Numbered from the stretch's first letter, positions 4,714-40,398 are shown. The stretch: 64,000 nucleotides of DNA from an uncultured Pseudomonadota bacterium (GCA_963712965.1 CAVQJZ010000007.1:205365-269364); one strand, 5' to 3'. The notes: generated from the letters alone by a model not told the origin. Numbers and translations: made by a program.

Positions 4714-5736
4714 ATGGCAACACGTTATGACATTGCAATTTTAGGCGCGACCGGCATTGTCGGCGAAGCATTATTCGATATTTTGGCACAACGCAAATTT
4801 CCCGTTGGCAAAATTTATGCGCTCGCCAGCGAGCGTTCGGCAGGAAACACGGTGATGTTCCAAAAAAAACCTATCCTCGTCGAAGATGCCGCACAATTTG
4901 ATTTCAGCAAAGTACAACTCGCTTTTTTTGCCGTCGACAATAAAATTTCCGCTACTTATGCGCCCATCGCTGCACAAGCCGGTTGCGTTGTCATTGATAA
5001 AAGTTCGCAATTTCGTTTGGATCCTGACGTGCCACTTGTTGTGCCTGAAGTAAACCCAGAAGCCATTGCTGATTATCGCAATAAAAATATTATCGCTGTG
5101 CCGAATTGTTCAACCATTCAAATGGTCGTTGCACTAAAACCAATTTACGATGCGGTCGGTATTGAGCGCGTGAATGTTGCAACGTATCAATCCGTATCTG
5201 GCAGTGGTCGCGATGGGGTTGATGAATTGGTGCATCAAGTCGCTGACTTGTTAAACGGTCATAAAGCAGAATGCAAAGTTTATCCACAACAAATTGCTTT
5301 TAATTTATTGCCACACATTGATGTATTTCTTGAAAATGGTTACTGCAAAGAAGAAATGAAATTAGTATGGGAAACACAAAAAATATTTAATAATCCTGAA
5401 ATATTCATTAATCCTACCACCGTGCGCGTACCTGTTTTTTATGGGCATGCCGAAGCGTTGCATATTGAAACACGTGAAAAAATTGATGCTGATTACGCAC
5501 GCGACCTATTAAAAGCGGCGCCAGGCATTATTGTGATTGATAATCTTAAAAAAGCATTATACCCAACACCGGTTGAAAGTTTACCTGACGAAGATGCGGT
5601 ATTTGTTGGCCGCATTCGTGAAGATATTTCGCATCCCCGAGGATTAAACATGTGGGTCGTAGCAGATAATGTCAGAAAAGGTGCAGCTTTAAATGCGATT
5701 CAGATTGCAGAATTGTTAATTAAAGATTATTTTTAG
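4714..5736 (+). CDS. asd: aspartate-semialdehyde dehydrogenase
   Basis: 340 aa. N-terminal ILGATGIVG NAD(P) motif and the active-site NCSTI motif. Confidence 0.85.
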   Translation: MATRYDIAILGATGIVGEALFDILAQRKFPVGKIYALASERSAGNTVMFQKKPILVEDAAQFDFSKVQLAFFAVDNKISATYAPIAAQAGCVVIDKSSQFRLDPDVPLVVPEVNPEAIADYRNKNIIAVPNCSTIQMVVALKPIYDAVGIERVNVATYQSVSGSGRDGVDELVHQVADLLNGHKAECKVYPQQIAFNLLPHIDVFLENGYCKEEMKLVWETQKIFNNPEIFINPTTVRVPVFYGHAEALHIETREKIDADYARDLLKAAPGIIVIDNLKKALYPTPVESLPDEDAVFVGRIREDISHPRGLNMWVVADNVRKGAALNAIQIAELLIKDYF

Positions 5737-5741
5737 TAATC

Positions 5742-5850
5742 CCCTTCTCCCGCTTGCGGGAGAAGGCCAGGATGAGGGTAATTAAAAATTAATTTTCTTT
5801 TTAACTCTCCCCTCACCCTAACCCTCTCCCACTTTCGTGGGAGAGGGAAT
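5742..5850. repeat. composite inverted pair of the dispersed 'CCCTCTCCC-loop-GGGAGAGGG + TTAGGGTGAGGG' repeat (two divergent copies around an AT-rich spacer)
   Basis: 5743..5779 (ccttctcccgcttgcgggagaaggccaggatgagggt) and 5806..5847 (reverse: ccctctcccacgaaagtgggagagggttagggtgaggggag). Same family as the copies at 36870, 39287 and 40304. Confidence 0.7.
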
Positions 5851-32051: not shown

Positions 32052-32116
32052 AAGCGTATGCGTTTACGTTTGGTGACTGACACCCACGTCATTGCGAGCG
32101 TAGCGAAGCAATCCAG

Positions 32117-32323
32117 AAATCCTAGATTGCCACGGCGACTTTGTCGCCTCGCAATGACGGACATCAACAATGCCAAAATATTTCACAATAAAATTGTTTT
32201 ACTTTTCTCACCTTTTTCTTCTTTCGCCAGGCGCGGGACTAAATATCCCGGCAATTGCGCTTGCATAAGTTTGACAATTTTTTTCGCGGTTTTTTCACTC
32301 ACGTCAATGTGCAAATAATAAGG
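32117..32323 (-). pseudogene. degenerate duplicate of the epmB 3' end plus its downstream REP element (~90% identical to 34272..34508, with a ~30-bp deletion)
   Basis: Direct alignment of the two segments in the sequence. The ORF-track pair 32058..32318 and 34282..34503 share the PRRLCRLAMTDINNAKIFHNKIVLLFSPFSSFA... peptide because they are antisense readings of this duplication. Confidence 0.7.
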
Positions 32324-32476
32324 AAGAGCGCTCGTTTTATTGGCAATATAATCCACCGCGCAGCTCTATCCTTGGGCTTAATGCTTTAATATGGTCGAAG
32401 CACAAAGAGTAAAAAATCAAAGTAAATGCTATAATTCACCTGGAACAACCTTTTGAAAGGTGTAGGAGATTGATTT

Positions 32477-33886
32477 ATGTTAGAAGCCTTTGCTCGATTT
32501 ACTTGTCCCCCTTTATCTACTGATTCTTTCGGAAAGGAAAAAGCGATTAGAGCACTCCGGGAACAGATCGATAGACAACTTAAGTCTATTGTTGAGGAAG
32601 TTGTTGGGCTACCAGTAGAGCTAGGGAAATTTAGCAATGAGCTTCCATCAGAAATAGCAATCCAACTCATTCAAACCAGCCGCCATTTTCTTCAGCAAGT
32701 GATTAAACTTCCTGCCATGGAAGAAAAAAATGCTTTAGAACAGCAAATGCGTTTTATTGCATTAATTCTAAGCAACCGAATCAATCAATTTCCCAAAGTG
32801 CTTCATGGCGTAGTTAATACTCTTTTGCGGGAAATTAGCCAAACAGTTGGAAAGGTTCCTGTATTAAACGAAAGTGTTCCACTGCCTGAGCAAGATTTTC
32901 TACCTGTAAAATATGATGATTCAGTTAAACACTGGCAAACCACTGTTTATCGTGACCCAGGTAGAGATAAAAAAGACAAAGTAGCGTTTTTTAGTCGGCA
33001 AGATGATTTAGGTCAAATTGCGTCGGTAAGAAGGCAGTTGCTCGTTGAAAGCATGAACTCACGAAATCAAGCTGAAGCTTTCAGTTTTGCCGAGTCAGAT
33101 TATTATGCGATGGGCGATTTACAAGTCAATCATTTGCAGCCTTCTGAAGAAATCATCGAGCGACAATTAGAATTAATCATGGCTATGAATATAGATTCTT
33201 TGTTCTGTGAAGCCATGATGGAACATCAAGAAGCCGACAAGTATTTTAAAAAAGTACATTCACATGGTAGAGACGAAATAGCAGGAACGAAATACTTTTT
33301 CCAGGTGTATCATAATTGCATTGATAATCTGTGGTTGATTAGTACCGCGGCAAATACGGGCTTGGGCAAACTTAATCAAAATCCTATTGATTGGCTAGAA
33401 TCACACTTAAGATACGGAGCAAGATTTTTCAATGAATCAGGTGGAATCCAGGCGATAAATCGTGATTCAATATTATATACTGTTGAAAAACCTGGCCAAA
33501 AAGTAGTTTTGGCCAAAGTAGCGAAAGAATGGTTTTTAAATACTTACAAAGAAGAGCTAGCGGCAGCAGGGTATTTGCGAGAAATAACGAGTACCGCCAA
33601 AGGGAAATTAGGCGGAGTTATACAAGAACCGAAAACATCTATTTCTAAACGCAAAAAAATTAAATTTATGATAAGAGCGGCAATGGCTGAAAGATTATTA
33701 CAAATTTCTTCGCCAAGTGGTTCTTCAAGCCCATCGTCATCTTTTGCAGAGATTAATCAGGAAAATATGAATCTTGTAGGACAAGTCATCGACGAAGAAT
33801 TTGCTAATCCAACTTCCTTGTTGACTCTAGCAAAAGGTAGTGCTGGCAAGCTGTCAAAAGCTTATGTCAATCTTAAGAAGAGGTAA
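32477..33886 (+). CDS. hypothetical protein (469 aa), island cargo; effector-like, no recognisable domain
   Basis: GGAG RBS 8 nt upstream. Acidic block (IDEEF) ~30 aa from the polar C-terminus. Confidence 0.55.
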   Translation: MLEAFARFTCPPLSTDSFGKEKAIRALREQIDRQLKSIVEEVVGLPVELGKFSNELPSEIAIQLIQTSRHFLQQVIKLPAMEEKNALEQQMRFIALILSNRINQFPKVLHGVVNTLLREISQTVGKVPVLNESVPLPEQDFLPVKYDDSVKHWQTTVYRDPGRDKKDKVAFFSRQDDLGQIASVRRQLLVESMNSRNQAEAFSFAESDYYAMGDLQVNHLQPSEEIIERQLELIMAMNIDSLFCEAMMEHQEADKYFKKVHSHGRDEIAGTKYFFQVYHNCIDNLWLISTAANTGLGKLNQNPIDWLESHLRYGARFFNESGGIQAINRDSILYTVEKPGQKVVLAKVAKEWFLNTYKEELAAAGYLREITSTAKGKLGGVIQEPKTSISKRKKIKFMIRAAMAERLLQISSPSGSSSPSSSFAEINQENMNLVGQVIDEEFANPTSLLTLAKGSAGKLSKAYVNLKKR

Positions 33887-33891
33887 ATTTT

Positions 33892-34203
33892 ATGAAAAGA
33901 TCTAGGGAATTAAGTCAAAGTGGAATTTTTAAAAAAACTGGTGTATTTGCAGAAAAAAAACAACTAAAAGAGGAGAAAATGTTTCTTATAGCTATGCGTG
34001 AAAAATGTTTCCCACGAATTCGTCAAGAAACAATGGATGAACTAGGAGAAAAATTTACTGAGCAAGCTGCTGAGGATAATTATAAATTGTTTGTACAAGC
34101 TTGTTATAGCAAGGGGATAATGGAAAAAATGCTGGGTGAATATTTGCAGAAAAAAATTGCGCGTGAGCGGGAAAAATACGCAAACCCTAGCCCTCGAAAG
34201 TAA
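33892..34203 (+). CDS. hypothetical small protein (103 aa), co-transcribed with the 469-aa ORF
   Basis: 5-nt intergenic gap, GAGG RBS. Charged and helical. Confidence 0.5.
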   Translation: MKRSRELSQSGIFKKTGVFAEKKQLKEEKMFLIAMREKCFPRIRQETMDELGEKFTEQAAEDNYKLFVQACYSKGIMEKMLGEYLQKKIAREREKYANPSPRK

Positions 34204-34337
34204 AATTAAGATAGTAAAAAATATCGCAAATATTCGGGACACCTTGTTATGCCGAGCATGCGGTAATCCATAAATCCTAGATTGCCACGGCGACTTTGTC
34301 GCCTCGCAATGACGGACATCAACAATGCCAAAATATT

Positions 34338-35303
34338 TCACAATAAAATCGTTTTACTTTTCTCGCCCTTTTCTTCTTTTGCCAAACGCGGAACCAAATA
34401 CCCTGGCAATTGCGCTTGCATAAGTTTGACAATTTTTTTCGCGGTTTTTTCACTCACTTCAAAATGCGCAGCACCCTTCACTTTATCTAACATATGCAAA
34501 TAATAAGGCAGGATACCCATAGCGAATAATTGTTCGCTTAATTTAGTTAAGCTCTCTGCTGTGTCATTAATATTTTTTAGTAACACGGATTGATTTAATA
34601 ATACTACGCCGGTTTTTTTTAATTTCGCCATCACGCTCGCAATTTTTTTATCTAATTCATTCGGATGATTACAATGCACGACAACAACTTTTTGCCACGG
34701 TAAATTTTTCAACCACGTTAAAAAAACAGTATCAATACGGTCGGGAGCAACGATAGGCATGCGCGTGTGAATACGTAATGTTTTAATATGTTTAATCGCG
34801 CGCAATTTATCTGTGAGATTTTTAAGCGACGCATTAGTTGCCATTAAAGGATCGCCACCACTTAAAATAATTTCCGTAATGCTTTTATCATGGGCAATAT
34901 AATCAACCACTTTATTCCACCCTTGGCGCCCTGGATTATTGTCGTTATAAGGAAAAGCGCGGCGAAAACAATAGCGACAATGAATCGCGCAGCTTCCAGT
35001 GACCGTCAAAAGCACGCGCCCTTGATATTTATGTAGCAATCCCGAAATGGGATTAGCTTGCTTTTCACCTAAGGGATCCAAAGAATAGTCTTTGGGCGAG
35101 TAAAATTCCGCGTGAAGTGGCAAAACTTGTTGCAACAAAGGGTCATTGGCATTACCTTTCTCAACTTTTGATAGCCAGTGGCGCGGAAACCGCAGCGGAA
35201 AAAGTGTCGCCACACGATAAGCTTCTTCCAAGAGAGTTGCATCCAATGCCAAGGCGTTGAATAATTCTTTAGGGTCAGTGATAAAAGCGGGTTTTGATTT
35301 CAT
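34338..35303 (-). CDS. epmB: EF-P beta-lysylation protein EpmB (lysine 2,3-aminomutase-like radical SAM)
   Basis: CAIHCRYCFRR radical-SAM cluster motif. Divergent from efp. Confidence 0.88.
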   Translation of the reverse strand: MKSKPAFITDPKELFNALALDATLLEEAYRVATLFPLRFPRHWLSKVEKGNANDPLLQQVLPLHAEFYSPKDYSLDPLGEKQANPISGLLHKYQGRVLLTVTGSCAIHCRYCFRRAFPYNDNNPGRQGWNKVVDYIAHDKSITEIILSGGDPLMATNASLKNLTDKLRAIKHIKTLRIHTRMPIVAPDRIDTVFLTWLKNLPWQKVVVVHCNHPNELDKKIASVMAKLKKTGVVLLNQSVLLKNINDTAESLTKLSEQLFAMGILPYYLHMLDKVKGAAHFEVSEKTAKKIVKLMQAQLPGYLVPRLAKEEKGEKSKTILL

Positions 35304-36822: not shown

Positions 36823-36913
36823 TCCGCAGAATCCCCTCTCTCGTGATAGAGATTGATCAAAATTGAAATCCCCTCTCCCGCTGGCGGGAGAGGGTTAGGG
36901 TGAGGGTGGAAAA
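36823..36913. repeat. dispersed hairpin + G-rich repeat (aaattgaaat-cccctctcccgctggcgggagagggttagggtgagggtgg)
   Basis: Near-identical direct copy at 39280..39330; related inverted copies at 5806..5847 and 40304..40375. Confidence 0.7.
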
Positions 36914-37001
36914 AATCATTGCGAATGGGTAAGCCTCCCTTAAAATTCCCCAGTTAGCAACTAGAGTTTTTTGGTAAATTACGCACCAGGAGACTTTAGA
37001 C

Positions 37002-37304
37002 ATGAAAAAGAAAAGATTTAACGAGATACAGATTCTTAATGTTTTAAAAGAACATGAAGCTGGCATACCTGCAGTTGAGTTAGCGCGCAAATATGGTATT
37101 GGCGAAAGCACCATTTATGCATGGAATGCTAAATATGCGGGCATGGAAGTAAACGAGCTTAAACGATTAAAACAATTAGAGGATGAAAATGCTCGTTTAA
37201 AAAAGATGTACGCGACGTTAAGCATGGACCATGAGCTACTGAAGGAGGTGCTTGAAAAAAAGTACAACGTGGATCTGAGCGACGCGAAACAGCGAAAGAT
37301 TTAA
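37002..37304 (+). CDS. IS3-family transposase OrfA (HTH)
   Basis: 100 aa: HTH (IPAVELARKYGIGESTIYAWN) followed by a leucine zipper. Confidence 0.85.
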   Translation: MKKKRFNEIQILNVLKEHEAGIPAVELARKYGIGESTIYAWNAKYAGMEVNELKRLKQLEDENARLKKMYATLSMDHELLKEVLEKKYNVDLSDAKQRKI

Positions 37305-38113
37305 TCGAAAGTCGCGGCGCCTCTATCAGTCAGGCATGTCGTGTTGCCAATATAGATCGCAAAACATATCGCTATCACCCGAAGAGAAAACAGGACAACA
37401 AAATGATTGAAGATTTATTAAAAACTCTTTCTGCTCAGCATCCCACATATGGGTTTCAGAAATTATTTGATTTAATTCGAATTAAAAGTTATTCGTTTAA
37501 TCACAAACGCGTATACCGAATTTACTGTGATTTAAGTCTTAACTTGAAGATAAAGCCCAAAAAACGCCTGGCACCAAGAACAAAAATTAAATTAGCACAA
37601 CCAGAAAATCTTAATCAGTGCTGGTCATTGGATTTCATGAGTGATGCGCTCACTAGCGGGCGACGTATTCGCACAGCAAATGTGATTGATGATTGTAACC
37701 GTGAGGCATTAGGTATTTTAGTTTCGCTTTCATTGACATCAAAAAGAATTACTCGATGGCTTGATCAGCTTGCATCATTACGCGGATACCCGAATCGAAT
37801 TCGCGTTGATAACGGGCCGGAAAATATTTCCCACCATTTTCAAAGCTGGGCAAAAGCACACGGCATTTTTATCCAATATATTCAACCAGGCAAGCCAGCA
37901 CAAAACGCTTACATTGAAAGATTTAATCGTAGTTATCGCGAAGCAGTTTTGGATATGTATTTATTTCGAAACATACAAGAGGTGCAAAATATTACTAATA
38001 ATTGGCTTAAACACTACAACGAGGAAAGACCACATGAATCACTAAATAATCTGCCACCCAGGATTTTTATTAACAACTTACATCAAAACCACTCTAGTTG
38101 TGCAGTGGGGTAA
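37256..38113 (+). CDS. IS3-family transposase OrfB (DDE/rve integrase), expressed by -1 frameshift at A_AAA_AAG (37256..37262)
   Basis: The OrfB frame is open upstream of its ATG (…KDLIESRGASISQACRVANIDRKTYRYHPKRKQDNKMIEDLL). The slippery heptamer a-aaa-aag lies in the orfA frame. The rve motifs and the DDE triad region are present. Confidence 0.8.
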   Translation, partial: KKVQRGSERRETAKDLIESRGASISQACRVANIDRKTYRYHPKRKQDNKMIEDLLKTLSAQHPTYGFQKLFDLIRIKSYSFNHKRVYRIYCDLSLNLKIKPKKRLAPRTKIKLAQPENLNQCWSLDFMSDALTSGRRIRTANVIDDCNREALGILVSLSLTSKRITRWLDQLASLRGYPNRIRVDNGPENISHHFQSWAKAHGIFIQYIQPGKPAQNAYIERFNRSYREAVLDMYLFRNIQEVQNITNNWLKHYNEERPHESLNNLPPRIFINNLHQNHSSCAVG

Positions 38114-38228
38114 ATTTGGGGGCTTTACAAATGCTCTTCCAAATTTTTATAAATAATTTCATTATCGGTATAACGTATTTTAACTAGGCAATTAAATAGA
38201 ATCCTCGGGGGCTTGCCAATAATCAAAA

Positions 38229-39269
38229 TTATCGGCTATTTTTCGGTCCTGGACCTTTCTCGTGATCAGACTCGCTAACAATCTCTGATGAGCTTTGTGA
38301 TACTTGGTTTTGGGCAGATCCACTAGAAGCAGAAAGCGTAGAATGAGCATAGACGCCAAAATTACTTATGGCTGATGCTGGTGATTGGTCTACGGCAGTA
38401 TGACCACTTAATCTTCTTACTTGTTCTCTAAGCTGCGCTATTTCTTCTTGAGCTTTTCTTTCATTTGCTTGCGCTTTTCTTTCATTTGCTTGCGCTTCTT
38501 CCTTTAATCTTCGTTCTTCTTTCAATTTTCCTTCCGGGCTTTCTTCCTTAAAAAACTGACACAACTTTTTTTCTAACTCAATAAAAGGTTTCTTAGCTTC
38601 CTGTTCCGCACAACTGGTAACAAAAGCTTCAAACTTCTCAGCAACATTATGCCAATCATCTGAATTCGCTCGTTCATCTGTCGCTGCCAATCGTTTTAAC
38701 AAATTGTAAACTTTTTTCTTAAGCGGCCTTTCTTCACAAATTAACCTTGATAAACGCGCTATGCGTTTATAACTTCTCGTCATACTCCAAGCGTTATAGT
38801 GTGCCTTTTTTGTTAAAAAGCCTCTTAAATCATTATCATCTGCATCATCACTTGTGCTTTCCGTTGTACTTGATGCCGTACCGGTACTTAAACGTCTATA
38901 GCCCTGCAGCAACTGGCGCATCGTCTGACCGGCATCATGCTCAGGACGTAATATACTAAACGTCCCATCTGCTCGATGTTGAACAAACAACGTTTCGCCT
39001 TTTTCACTATCCTTCATAGCCAAATCACCCTTTTCATTGATTACTCTCGCTGCACTATCTAATATCACCACAAGCTGTCCAGTTAATTCTTCTAATGCCT
39101 TCAATTCTAACGATCTCGGAAGTTTTTCTCCATTATCTATGTGCTTTAAACACGCTTCTAATTCAGATCGACTGCTGCCTTCCTTTGTTTGTCCAGCCTG
39201 CCTTTCTAAATGGGATCTTATCCTTTTTCGCAAATCGCTACCAAATTCAGGATACCGAGTTAAAAGCAA
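38229..39269 (-). CDS. hypothetical coiled-coil protein (346 aa) with an internal 7-aa tandem repeat (AQANERK x2.3) and a Ser-rich C-terminus; effector-like
   Basis: No recognised domain. The 21-bp tandem DNA repeat at ~38452..38500 is seen directly. The stop codon lies 10 bp from the IS right end. Confidence 0.5.
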   Translation of the reverse strand: MLLTRYPEFGSDLRKRIRSHLERQAGQTKEGSSRSELEACLKHIDNGEKLPRSLELKALEELTGQLVVILDSAARVINEKGDLAMKDSEKGETLFVQHRADGTFSILRPEHDAGQTMRQLLQGYRRLSTGTASSTTESTSDDADDNDLRGFLTKKAHYNAWSMTRSYKRIARLSRLICEERPLKKKVYNLLKRLAATDERANSDDWHNVAEKFEAFVTSCAEQEAKKPFIELEKKLCQFFKEESPEGKLKEERRLKEEAQANERKAQANERKAQEEIAQLREQVRRLSGHTAVDQSPASAISNFGVYAHSTLSASSGSAQNQVSQSSSEIVSESDHEKGPGPKNSR

Positions 39270-39279
39270 TTGATAAAAA

Positions 39280-39330
39280 TTGAAATCCCCTCTCCCGCTG
39301 GCGGGAGAGGGTTAGGGTGAGGGTGGGAAA
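39280..39330. repeat. dispersed hairpin + G-rich repeat, direct copy of 36861..36913
   Basis: cccctctcccgctggcgggagagggttagggtgagggtggg. Its 3' end overlaps the stop codon of the DUF559 gene. Confidence 0.7.
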
Positions 39331-39332
39331 AA

Positions 39333-39674
39333 TCATTTCGAACGTTCTTCTAACTTTTTATAAATAACTTCCAGAACCGTACTAACTTCTTTAAAAATTT
39401 GGTCATTCCAAAATCTAATAACTTTGAATCCCAATCCCTCTAAATATCGCGAACGTTTCTCATCGTAACCAATCTGTTCCAGATGCTGACCACCATCTAA
39501 CTCAACAATCAACTTTTGTTCAATACAAATGAAATCAGCAATGTAGTTTCCGACCCAGTATTGTCGCCTGAACTTGAATCCGTAAAATCTTCTATTTCGC
39601 AAGAAATACCACAATCTATTTTCTGCGTCTGTTTGAAACTTTCGCAATGCGCGTGCTTTTTGTTTCATTACCAT
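39333..39674 (-). CDS. DUF559 (Vsr-like endonuclease fold) protein
   Basis: 113 aa; YFLRNRRFYGFKFRRQYWVGNYIADFICIEQKLIVELDGGQH matches the DUF559 signature. Confidence 0.7.
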   Translation of the reverse strand: MVMKQKARALRKFQTDAENRLWYFLRNRRFYGFKFRRQYWVGNYIADFICIEQKLIVELDGGQHLEQIGYDEKRSRYLEGLGFKVIRFWNDQIFKEVSTVLEVIYKKLEERSK

Positions 39675-39733
39675 CCCACTAACTTTTATTATTTTTTACC
39701 ACTCTCTTTCACTAGCGTTAAAACTGGAAAAAA

Positions 39734-40258
39734 CTAAACAACGCCAATTTCTTTACTTAATATTTGCTTTAAATCCTTAAAAATAGACAAGGTCTCAGAA
39801 GGTTCACGATCAAGAATTACTTTTGTCTGCAACACTTTAGATTCAATAACATTTAGTACGCTCTCAAGATCATGAAGCAAATCCCGAATCTCTGGATAAT
39901 GTAACTTATTCTCTTTAATAGAATCTTTCTTCTTGTGCGCCATACTGTGGCGAAAATCTTTATATTTTTGGATCTGACTTTCCCATTCTTCAAATTTTCG
40001 CTTTAAACTTGGTTCTGATTTTAGAACCGCCTTAATCAAACTATCGCTTCTGCTATCAAAAATACTAAGCAGCTCTATTACAACAGAACTAATAATTAAA
40101 TTTTTTGCTGGAATCCCCAGAAATTTTGATGAATCAAACGAGAAGCATACTCACTGATAAGCTCATGTATTTTAATTAATATCCTGATGCGATAAACACC
40201 GGAACGCAAAACTTCCAAGCCTTCTTTAATTCTCTCTTTTTCCATACCGTTCATCATG
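39734..40258 (-). pseudogene. frameshifted ORF (54-aa 5' frame plus ~140-aa 3' frame joined at an A6/T3 run near 40095..40110); the 3' part carries an Rx4H (RHSMAH) HEPN-like motif
   Basis: The ORF track shows only 39734..40039 (TTG start). Manual reverse translation shows an upstream ATG ORF (MMNGMEKERIKEGLEVLRSGVYRIRILIKIHELISEYASRLIHQNFWGFQQKI*) overlapping the open upstream extension of the downstream frame. Confidence 0.4.
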
Positions 40259-40303
40259 CTTTCCAAAGATAATTCTCAAAAAATTATTTTACTTTGAAAT
40301 TGC

Positions 40304-40375
40304 CCACCCTCACCCTAACCCTCTCCCCTCCTCCGCCCGCCTACGTGACTTCGGTGTGCTTCGGCGGGAGAGGGA
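40304..40375. repeat. inverted, expanded copy of the hairpin + G-rich dispersed repeat (cccaccctcaccctaaccctctcccc...gcgggagaggg)
   Basis: Reverse complement contains gggagagggttagggtgagggtggg and a longer GC hairpin. Confidence 0.65.
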
Positions 40376-40398
40376 AAAACACAATAACTTAACCTTTA

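Follow-up and report, generated by a model that had tools for sequence, protein, structure and literature searches.

The question raised by the DNA considered here is what a short, structured repeat is doing in an islet beside epmA, where it recurs among genes of quite different kinds. The DNA is a 64,000-nt stretch from an uncultured Pseudomonadota bacterium (GCA_963712965.1, CAVQJZ010000007.1:205365-269364), which we call the window, and the islet holds an insertion sequence (IS) of the IS3 family, a gene for a DUF559 protein, a 346-aa open reading frame (ORF) and a HEPN-like pseudogene. A preliminary description of this DNA had seen in the repeat a dispersed, structured family with G-quadruplex (G4) potential that lies at variable sites, and hits across phyla, the published work of Holder and Kaplan and a synteny break in the nearest relative all bear this out. 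It had overlooked a remnant of a second DUF559 gene, together with the role of the repeats as inverted arms of DUF559 cassettes. The explanation that we consider best overall, at a probability of roughly 0.7, combines the identity of the repeat as BoxC, the anatomy of the islet, a pattern of BoxC arms around DUF559 genes, and a mechanism, itself tentative, in which DUF559 would act on BoxC.

BoxC repeats as inverted arms of DUF559 cassettes

The 21-mer GGGAGAGGGTTAGGGTGAGGG has four exact matches in the window, at 36886 and 39303 on the plus strand and at 5810 and 40307 on the minus strand, where 100 dinucleotide-preserving shuffles gave an expectation of 0; the four copies of a hairpin joined to a G-run that had been noticed at first sight are therefore real. 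A relaxed pattern search yielded a fifth, degenerate copy at 5758 on the plus strand. Copies 1 and 2, both in the islet, read CCCTCTCCC-GCTGGC-GGGAGAGGG-TTA-GGGTGAGGG-TGG(G). This sequence identifies the repeat as BoxC, which is the same as the PIT element and as TMECO type A: a 9-bp C/G hairpin followed by TTA-GGGTGAGGG. BoxC is a recognized repeat family of E. coli, reportedly described by Bachellier in the 1990s, and the PIT element is said to go back to Hoyne and Maher in 2000. We make the identification because the sequence fits the general pattern of Holder 2015 (PMC4666352), CCCTCNCCC-N3-6-GGGNGAGGG-N3-GGGNGAGGG, because it matches E. coli entries in Table 1 of that paper, and because the same sequence appears in Kaplan 2016 (PMC5100583). 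Holder 2015 counted 23 TMECO copies in E. coli K-12, gave type A as CCCTC(T/G)CCC-loop-GGGAGAGGGTTAGGGTGAGGG, and equated TMECO with the BoxC repeat of the 1990s and with Maher's PIT element.

Holder's pattern is matched exactly at 36871 and 39288 (6-nt loop, TTA). At 5810 and 40303 all three stems are kept exactly, with loops of 8 and 39 nt that exceed the pattern, and the copy at 5742 departs from it by 2 stem mismatches. In all, five copies and one stub lie in the window, none of them inside an intact gene. The window is about 40% GC, and the element forms a GC-rich island there, as it does in other AT-rich hits; an Rfam search with the element at E-values up to 10 returned chance hits only. 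Folded as single-stranded DNA, the hairpins of copies 1 and 2 reach -11.8 kcal/mol (z -4.1 and -3.3), while copy 3, with the same stems around its 39-nt loop, folds no better than its shuffles (z -0.5), so that the GC hairpin ascribed to every copy holds for the first two and fails for the third. The folding tool scores Watson-Crick pairs only. Because Holder 2015 and Kaplan 2016 had between them already put the repeat, the G4 idea and the hot-spot idea into print, the BoxC of the islet is not itself new; what is new at this level is a new host for a known repeat family.

Three of the islet repeats are the inverted arms of two neighboring DUF559 cassettes on the minus strand. In the first cassette the order is left arm (40375 to 40303), HEPN-like pseudogene, DUF559 gene, right arm (39327 to 39287). 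The left arm is BoxC #3 (40303..40375, minus strand), the copy with the 39-nt loop, and the right arm is BoxC #2 (39287-39327, plus strand); BoxC #2 and the tail of BoxC #3 form a 33-nt inverted repeat of 91% identity that encloses both genes. The DUF559 gene itself (39333..39674, minus strand) is intact, encodes 113 aa of a Vsr-like PD-(D/E)XK fold and, as the preliminary description had it, clearly belongs to the family: it scores 143.5 bits against a cut-off of 20.6 for PF04480 (E 2.7e-42), carries a VELDGGQH core with the invariant residues E58, D60 and H64, and has 3HRL as its nearest solved structure (E 3e-30).

The second cassette is decayed. What remains of it is its right arm (36909 to 36870, BoxC #1) and the last 15-20 codons of DUF559, with the orphan 346-aa gene lying upstream of this stub. 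The two right arms lie in a direct repeat on the plus strand, 36852..36925 (BoxC #1 proper at 36870-36909) against 39269..39342 (BoxC #2), at 96% identity. Near-identical direct repeats of about 50 nt had been reported here; the near-identity stands, and the length is 74 nt, since the repeat takes in 18 nt beyond the hairpin on one side and the last DUF559 codons on the other. The direct repeats that bracket the IS and the 346-aa gene arise from local duplication of a DUF559 3' end with its arm. Nor is the DUF559 stop codon inside the repeat element: it lies at 39333-39335, 5 nt outside the last G tract, and is included in the 74-nt duplication only.

The DUF559 remnant is in two pieces on the minus strand, the last codons (..SQ*) at 36914..36926, severed from the rest by the IS3 element, and the remainder (..EIIYKNLEEH) at 38130..38175, whose DNA is about 73% identical to the 3' end of the intact gene. 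When the IS is removed together with one copy of AAT/AATG, the flank of copy 1 aligns gap-free to the intact DUF559 3' end, and the restored stub reads EIIYKNLEEHSQ where the intact protein ends in VIYKKLEERSK. The IS3 element was therefore inserted into a DUF559 stub.

To see how far the arrangement extends, we took the 80 metagenome loci whose DUF559 proteins are closest to that of the window (47-59% identical). A strict BoxC hairpin lies within 200 nt of the gene at 46 of the 80, and 37 of 41 full motifs fall within that distance, 14 of them upstream with the tail facing the gene and 17 downstream and inverted. Most of the other loci have variant stems of the same design, among them CCCTCCCCC/GGGGGAGGG/GGGTGGGGG and CCTTCCCCC/GGGGGAAGG/GGATGGGGG. 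A flanking inverted repeat with arms of 33-50 nt scored 18 or more at 48 of 76 related DUF559 loci, against about 9-10 in shuffles. Strict arms on both sides were present at 17 loci, making units of 388-587 bp. The loop of one arm is often the reverse complement of the other loop, and relative to the conserved core the arms begin 0-145 nt ahead of it and -2 to 71 nt beyond it. On the tree of DUF559 proteins, loci of like arm type group together, and the contigs concerned span 38-70% GC. DUF559 genes of this subfamily are thus usually bracketed, within tens of bases, by inverted arms of 33-50 nt, and the sequences of the arms co-vary between the two ends of a locus. Arms, in some cases of opposite polarity, also occur in Deinococcus, Azospirillum, Synechocystis and Picosynechococcus. 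We found no published report of this arrangement of DUF559 and BoxC.

Uniqueness of the motif to the window was what the preliminary description had said would overturn its idea of a dispersed family. The motif is anything but unique: in a collection of species-representative genomes the exact 21-mer occurs in at least 120 stretches, from hosts in the Chloroflexota, Planctomycetota, Alpha-, Beta- and Gammaproteobacteria, Cyanobacteria, Nitrospirota, Elusimicrobiota, Atribacterota, Verrucomicrobiota and others, and nearly all of the 21-mers listed have (C)CCCTCTCCC and a short loop directly before them. Starting from BoxC in this way, a clear DUF559 gene stood beside 4 of 128 copies among the matches listed, and 2 further fragments abut the C-run side. 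No other clear DUF559 gene occurs in the 880 kb around BoxC; all four follow the G-run on its own strand at a distance of 20-90 nt, and DUF559 is the joint most recurrent family beside BoxC and the sole small one. Loci of Enterobacter and Leclercia carry arrays of alternating BoxC variants. In N. gonorrhoeae a degenerate BoxC and DUF559 together form a unit that has a direct repeat of about 40 nt, GTTTTCCTTGCAGC..CCCCAACAGCCGACCCG, on its flanks in place of inverted arms, some 160 nt to each side of the DUF559 match.

E. coli offers a comparison in the organism where BoxC was defined. In K-12 (NC_000913.3 1351204-1351420) the stop codon of ycjD overlaps a partial BoxC arm; beyond it the 3' end of ycjD recurs as a 39-nt duplicate, and then come a degenerate GGGTTAGGGG and the intact TMECO #9. 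The stub plus arm at ycjD is of the same kind as that in the window. Some ycjD alleles have a complete arm, which fits the allele longer by 12 nt that is described, along with the distribution of ycjD over phylogroups, in PMC12817139. The E. coli genomes that lack ycjD, such as those of sequence type 131 (ST131), have the eef operon at the locus and no BoxC there.

The other contents of the islet and its variable site

Taken as a whole, the islet is a mosaic located at a variable site beside epmA. Its largest component is the IS3-family element (36927..38129, plus strand, about 1203 bp), with OrfA at 37002-37304, a slip site A AAA AAG at 37256-37262 and OrfB running to 38113. It has imperfect terminal inverted repeats (TGGGTAAGCC.. 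and ..GGCTTTACA) and a 3-4-bp target duplication, AAT/AATG. With the NCBIfam IS3 model the fused OrfAB protein reaches 271 bits, the cut-off being 160, over model positions 2-366 of 369, and it contains the Pfam domains HTH_Tnp_1, rve and rve_3. The -1 frameshift in the transposase, correctly noted at the outset, is programmed and not damage, and as the fused OrfAB is full length the element looks intact. To the nearest plasmid-borne IS3 elements, those of Piscirickettsia and Legionella israelensis, its DNA identity is only 65-69%. The left end of the IS had been said to abut a repeat copy exactly; it lies at about 36927, 13 nt past the end then given for the copy and 17 nt beyond its last G tract. 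The evidence that had been offered for the repeat as a mark of insertion targets is thus wrong, the IS3 element being in the DUF559 stub and not against the repeat. We likewise rejected targeting of BoxC by IS3, since the IS sits in the stub with its own duplication and its ends are unrelated to BoxC.

The HEPN-like pseudogene (39734..40266, minus strand) is interrupted by one frameshift, after ..QNFWGFQQ; rebuilt, it encodes 177 aa and contains RHSMAH, the Rx4H motif that had been read from the frameshifted ORF. Over its whole length the rebuilt protein aligns with a small family of proteins, 182-206 aa long, in which R106 and H111 are invariant in 7 sequences. A homologue search returned the protein itself and nothing else, and an exhaustive HMMER search found 8 distant relatives. 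HEPN_AbiU2 is the best Pfam model for query and relatives alike, at 22.8-25.1 bits, below the cut-off of 26.8. The single-sequence AlphaFold model is helical with a pLDDT of 59, too poor for a fold search.

The orphan 346-aa ORF (38229..39269, minus strand) contains the 21-bp tandem repeat first seen there, in 2.4 copies at 38447-38497 (QANERKA); a second tandem repeat, 18 bp in 2.2 copies with 77% matches, follows directly at 38495-38534. The reading frame is coding-like, with a score of 0.19 against -0.64 and -0.89 for the other frames. Among 5.8 billion proteins it has no relative but itself, and it has no match in Pfam, NCBIfam or PADLOC. The search of defense databases that had been suggested for the 346-aa and HEPN-like proteins thus found nothing in PADLOC for either, nor did DUF559 have a match there. 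Because its putative TTG start abuts the 74-nt repeat, the ORF may be truncated. Codon-usage scores for the islet genes (36927-40266) are 0.04-0.20, against 0.30 +/- 0.06 for housekeeping genes; each gene falls under the housekeeping range or at the lower edge of it, and in every case below epmA and the SPFH gene, which is consistent with a foreign or recent origin.

Directly 3' of the epmA stop codon lies a decayed BoxC hairpin stub (36830..36850, plus strand). The EpmA of the host is 60-65% identical to that of Legionellaceae-type metagenome-assembled genomes, a similarity that is the sole basis for calling the host Legionellales-like. The closest available relative has an EpmA that is 92% identical, with DNA at about 87%. 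Homology between it and the window stops at 36843, inside the hairpin stub, and right after epmA the relative has one full BoxC and then an unrelated gene that is missing from the window. With the end of homology at the BoxC after epmA, the site is a synteny breakpoint. The BoxC of the relative (5506-5559) has a 24-nt loop, GCCGAAGCAC..GGAGGAT, related to the 39-nt loop of BoxC #3 (window 40307-40374); the two stand in opposite orientation and at opposite ends of the islet. They may belong to a long-loop subfamily or record an inversion.

A second variable spot lies at 32075-34338, where direct repeats of 203 nt at 93% identity (32110-32312 and 34265-34467) duplicate the 3' end of epmB and bracket about 2.1 kb with ORFs of 469 and 103 aa. 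At the epmB spot the closest relative has an 85-aa gene and a PIN-domain toxin gene instead.

Far from the islet, the copy first described as composite at 5742..5850 resolves into two elements, an inverted pair of arms at 5741-5847 with nothing between them. The left member, between two plus-strand genes, is the degenerate type-B-like BoxC (5741..5778, plus strand), CCCTTCTCCC-GCTTGC-GGGAGAAGG-CCA-GGATGAGGG, and the right member is a type A BoxC with an 8-nt loop (5810..5847, minus strand). Their tails point inward, so that the G-runs face each other across a 31-nt spacer, and the whole pair folds at -31.9 kcal/mol (z -8).

A possible partner enzyme, and other explanations

What might join DUF559 to BoxC? 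We tentatively suggest, in the knowledge that the odds are somewhat against us, that BoxC/TMECO elements are the inverted arms of a minimal DUF559 cassette of about 400-600 bp, with DUF559 as the partner enzyme, in a second and unrelated pairing of the REP/RAYT kind. By binding or cutting the arm in its folded state, a hairpin with a G-rich tail, DUF559 would maintain or spread copies of BoxC; for this step, in which the nuclease acts on folded arms to sustain or spread BoxC, we would allow a chance well short of even. Solitary BoxC copies would then be relics unable to move alone. Breaks, hairpin slippage and recombination between copies could give rise to the rearrangements seen around BoxC. 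In the islet itself, an intact IS3 element later split the stub of the decayed cassette and left its 3-4-bp target duplication. A partner enzyme of this kind would explain both the conservation of BoxC across phyla and its link with rearrangement.

The finding as first noted would have amounted to little beyond the recording of BoxC in a low-GC, Legionellales-like genome. BoxC has gone about 30 years without a known function, a means of spreading or a reason for having one sequence across phyla, and a tight, oriented and co-varying tie to one small nuclease family supplies a concrete candidate partner. If true, the link would also assign a role to DUF559. E. coli K-12 is well suited to testing it, with ycjD as a single, non-essential gene and 23 BoxC copies.

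Several observations weigh against DUF559 as the partner of BoxC. In the genome scan, 124 of the 128 BoxC copies among the matches listed have no DUF559 nearby, and the 80 loci were sampled as the nearest relatives of queries some of which had been picked for adjacency to BoxC. Plasmids rarely carry DUF559 (45 of 72,556 records), and the arms are rare in viral contigs (4 of 34 DUF559 loci), which leaves little support for spread of DUF559 and BoxC by plasmid or phage. No target duplications are evident around the cassettes at the 17 two-arm loci. Among neighboring BoxC copies less than 600 nt apart in the matches listed, 17 pairs have their tails inward, 21 have them outward and 8 are direct; as inward pairs are no commoner than outward ones, the notion that inverted BoxC pairs are emptied cassettes is without specific support. 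In the window, the left arm is separated from DUF559 by a second gene, and the 74-nt duplication exceeds the arm, features that fit segmental duplication better than precise transposition. We know of no activity of any DUF559 protein on BoxC DNA.

E. coli adds one point against the link and one pattern in its favor. There ycjD is present in 3378 of 5426 genomes at one locus, and never in more than one copy, and on account of this single, fixed location we rejected active transposition in that species. The pattern in favor depends on how strains are assigned to phylogroups. By the counts of Holder Table S7 and the phylogroups of PMC12817139, lineages A, B1 and C, which carry ycjD, have 13-30 TMECO copies. 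Lineages that lack ycjD have fewer, from 0 to 13: B2 strains range over 0-2, and strains of E, D and F over 6-13. This is suggestive, and it is a single phylogenetic contrast, and a confounded one.

An explanation that needs no enzyme is that BoxC is simply a motif of non-B DNA (hairpin, intrastrand triplex or G4) that stalls replication and provokes repair, deletion and recombination, so that DUF559 genes and ISs accumulate at fragile sites. In its favor, Holder 2015 found DNA around TMECO sites to be variable in 56 E. coli strains, with a mean of 2966 nt that exceeded three of four control sets, and obtained an intrastrand triplex in vitro, by circular dichroism (CD) and nuclear magnetic resonance, with an E. 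coli oligonucleotide. The break in synteny of the close relative at BoxC, and the presence of IS3 and orphan genes in the islet, point the same way. A fragile site does not explain, however, why one small gene family should be bracketed tightly and in fixed orientation by arms that co-vary with each other and with the protein clade, nor why the same 21-mer is retained across genomes of 38-70% GC, and Holder's dimethyl sulfate footprinting in vivo gave no sign of a triplex. We regard this explanation as unlikely, though it deserves to be taken seriously.

Less probable still is that the copies are transcription terminators, or hairpins that stabilize the RNA of their neighbors, DUF559 included. 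BoxC #1 and #2, in which a 10-bp stem is followed by GATTTCAATT, are the sole terminator-like calls on the minus strand between 36700 and 40500, and they come directly after the DUF559 remnant and the DUF559 gene. The calls come from a scan for consensus matches only, however, and the 2 sites fall below the shuffle mean of 3.8. Termination would have no need of a conserved G-rich tail and an upstream arm, and the U-tract is poor. Earlier experiments cited by Holder 2015 also found PIT elements to have neither promoter nor terminator activity in E. coli.

We give slightly less credence again to a G-run that switches between G4 and hairpin and so regulates the neighboring genes, as Kaplan 2016 proposed for the same motif (HPG1/HPG2 of E. 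coli), described there from CD as a G-quadruplex-hairpin-duplex switch. The run in the window, GGG-AGA-GGG-TTA-GGG-TGA-GGG-T-GGG, does fit the canonical pattern (G3N1-7)x4, as the preliminary description had said, and G4Hunter scores it 1.75-1.88; Kaplan's related E. coli oligonucleotide was G4-like in K+ and hairpin-like in Li+ or Mg2+, with similar melting temperatures. Yet once the complementary strand was added the duplex won in all ions tested, half of the G tracts in the window copies are locked in the -11.8 kcal/mol hairpin, and the type-B-like copy at 5758 misses the G4 pattern. Holder 2015 reported a triplex in vitro and not a G4, and saw no pattern in the functions of the flanking genes and no set distance to them.

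That the repeats are miniature inverted-repeat transposable elements (MITEs) or REPs moved by a conventional transposase, be it the islet's IS3 or a RAYT elsewhere, is very unlikely: they are short, dispersed, hairpin-forming and intergenic, and an IS lies 17 nt from one copy, but the terminal repeats of the IS are unrelated to BoxC and it has its own duplication in the DUF559 stub, BoxC spans phyla of quite different IS content, Holder 2015 never found a transposase or integrase beside TMECO, and no RAYT is among the recurrent neighbors of BoxC.

Comparison with known repeat systems

Compared with BoxC/TMECO of E. coli, the repeat in the window has the same sequence and design, with the type A TTA loop, and the likeness extends to intergenic copies, to variable sites and to inverted A+B pairs, which Holder 2015 also recorded in E. 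coli. It differs in its host, which is Legionellales-like and about 40% GC, L. pneumophila having one copy only; in the long loops (8 and 39 nt) of two window copies, which lie outside the published pattern; and in that three window copies are arms of DUF559 cassettes, a link absent from Holder 2015. With HPG1/HPG2 of Kaplan 2016 it shares the sequence family and a G4 that would compete with a hairpin; Kaplan's work is biophysics on E. coli oligonucleotides, whereas the element in the window is known from its sequence.

The IS is a typical member of the IS3 family in its OrfA helix-turn-helix, its OrfB DDE rve domain, its A AAA AAG site for -1 frameshifting, its 3-4-bp duplication and its size of about 1.2 kb. 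It stands apart from the nearest plasmid elements at 65-69% DNA identity, and to the repeat it is a bystander. By the usual marks of MITEs, inverted pairs exist, the arms show no consistent flanking duplication, and their sequence is unrelated to the ends of the IS3. Integron attC sites flank their cassettes in direct order; we rejected an integron-cassette reading, since the arms here are inverted.

DUF559 is placed in the same PD-(D/E)XK clade as the Vsr endonuclease and the homing endonuclease I-Bth0305I, and the latter shows that a Vsr fold can serve a selfish element. Unlike them, DUF559 here lacks a partner methyltransferase, is not in an intron or intein context, and has no known recognition site.

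A parallel may be that of REP/REPIN repeats and RAYT transposases, reportedly drawn together by Nunvar in 2010. RAYT genes are single-copy and vertically inherited, and on either side of them are the REP/REPIN repeats that they presumably serve (Bertels and Rainey 2011, PMC3116915). We found no HUH Y1 (IS200-like) transposase flanked by the repeats and no RAYT among the recurrent neighbors of BoxC, the rest of the window not having been scanned for RAYT. The gene flanked by BoxC is a Vsr-like PD-(D/E)XK nuclease and not an HUH Y1 transposase, BoxC has a non-palindromic G-rich tail and keeps the same sequence across phyla, and the DUF559 side of the comparison is read from genomes. In both systems, however, hairpin repeats dispersed through a genome also flank a nuclease gene present there in one copy, inverted doublets are common, and the type of repeat co-varies with the clade of the protein, so that DUF559, as a Vsr-fold nuclease, may stand to BoxC as RAYT transposases stand to REP/REPIN repeats.

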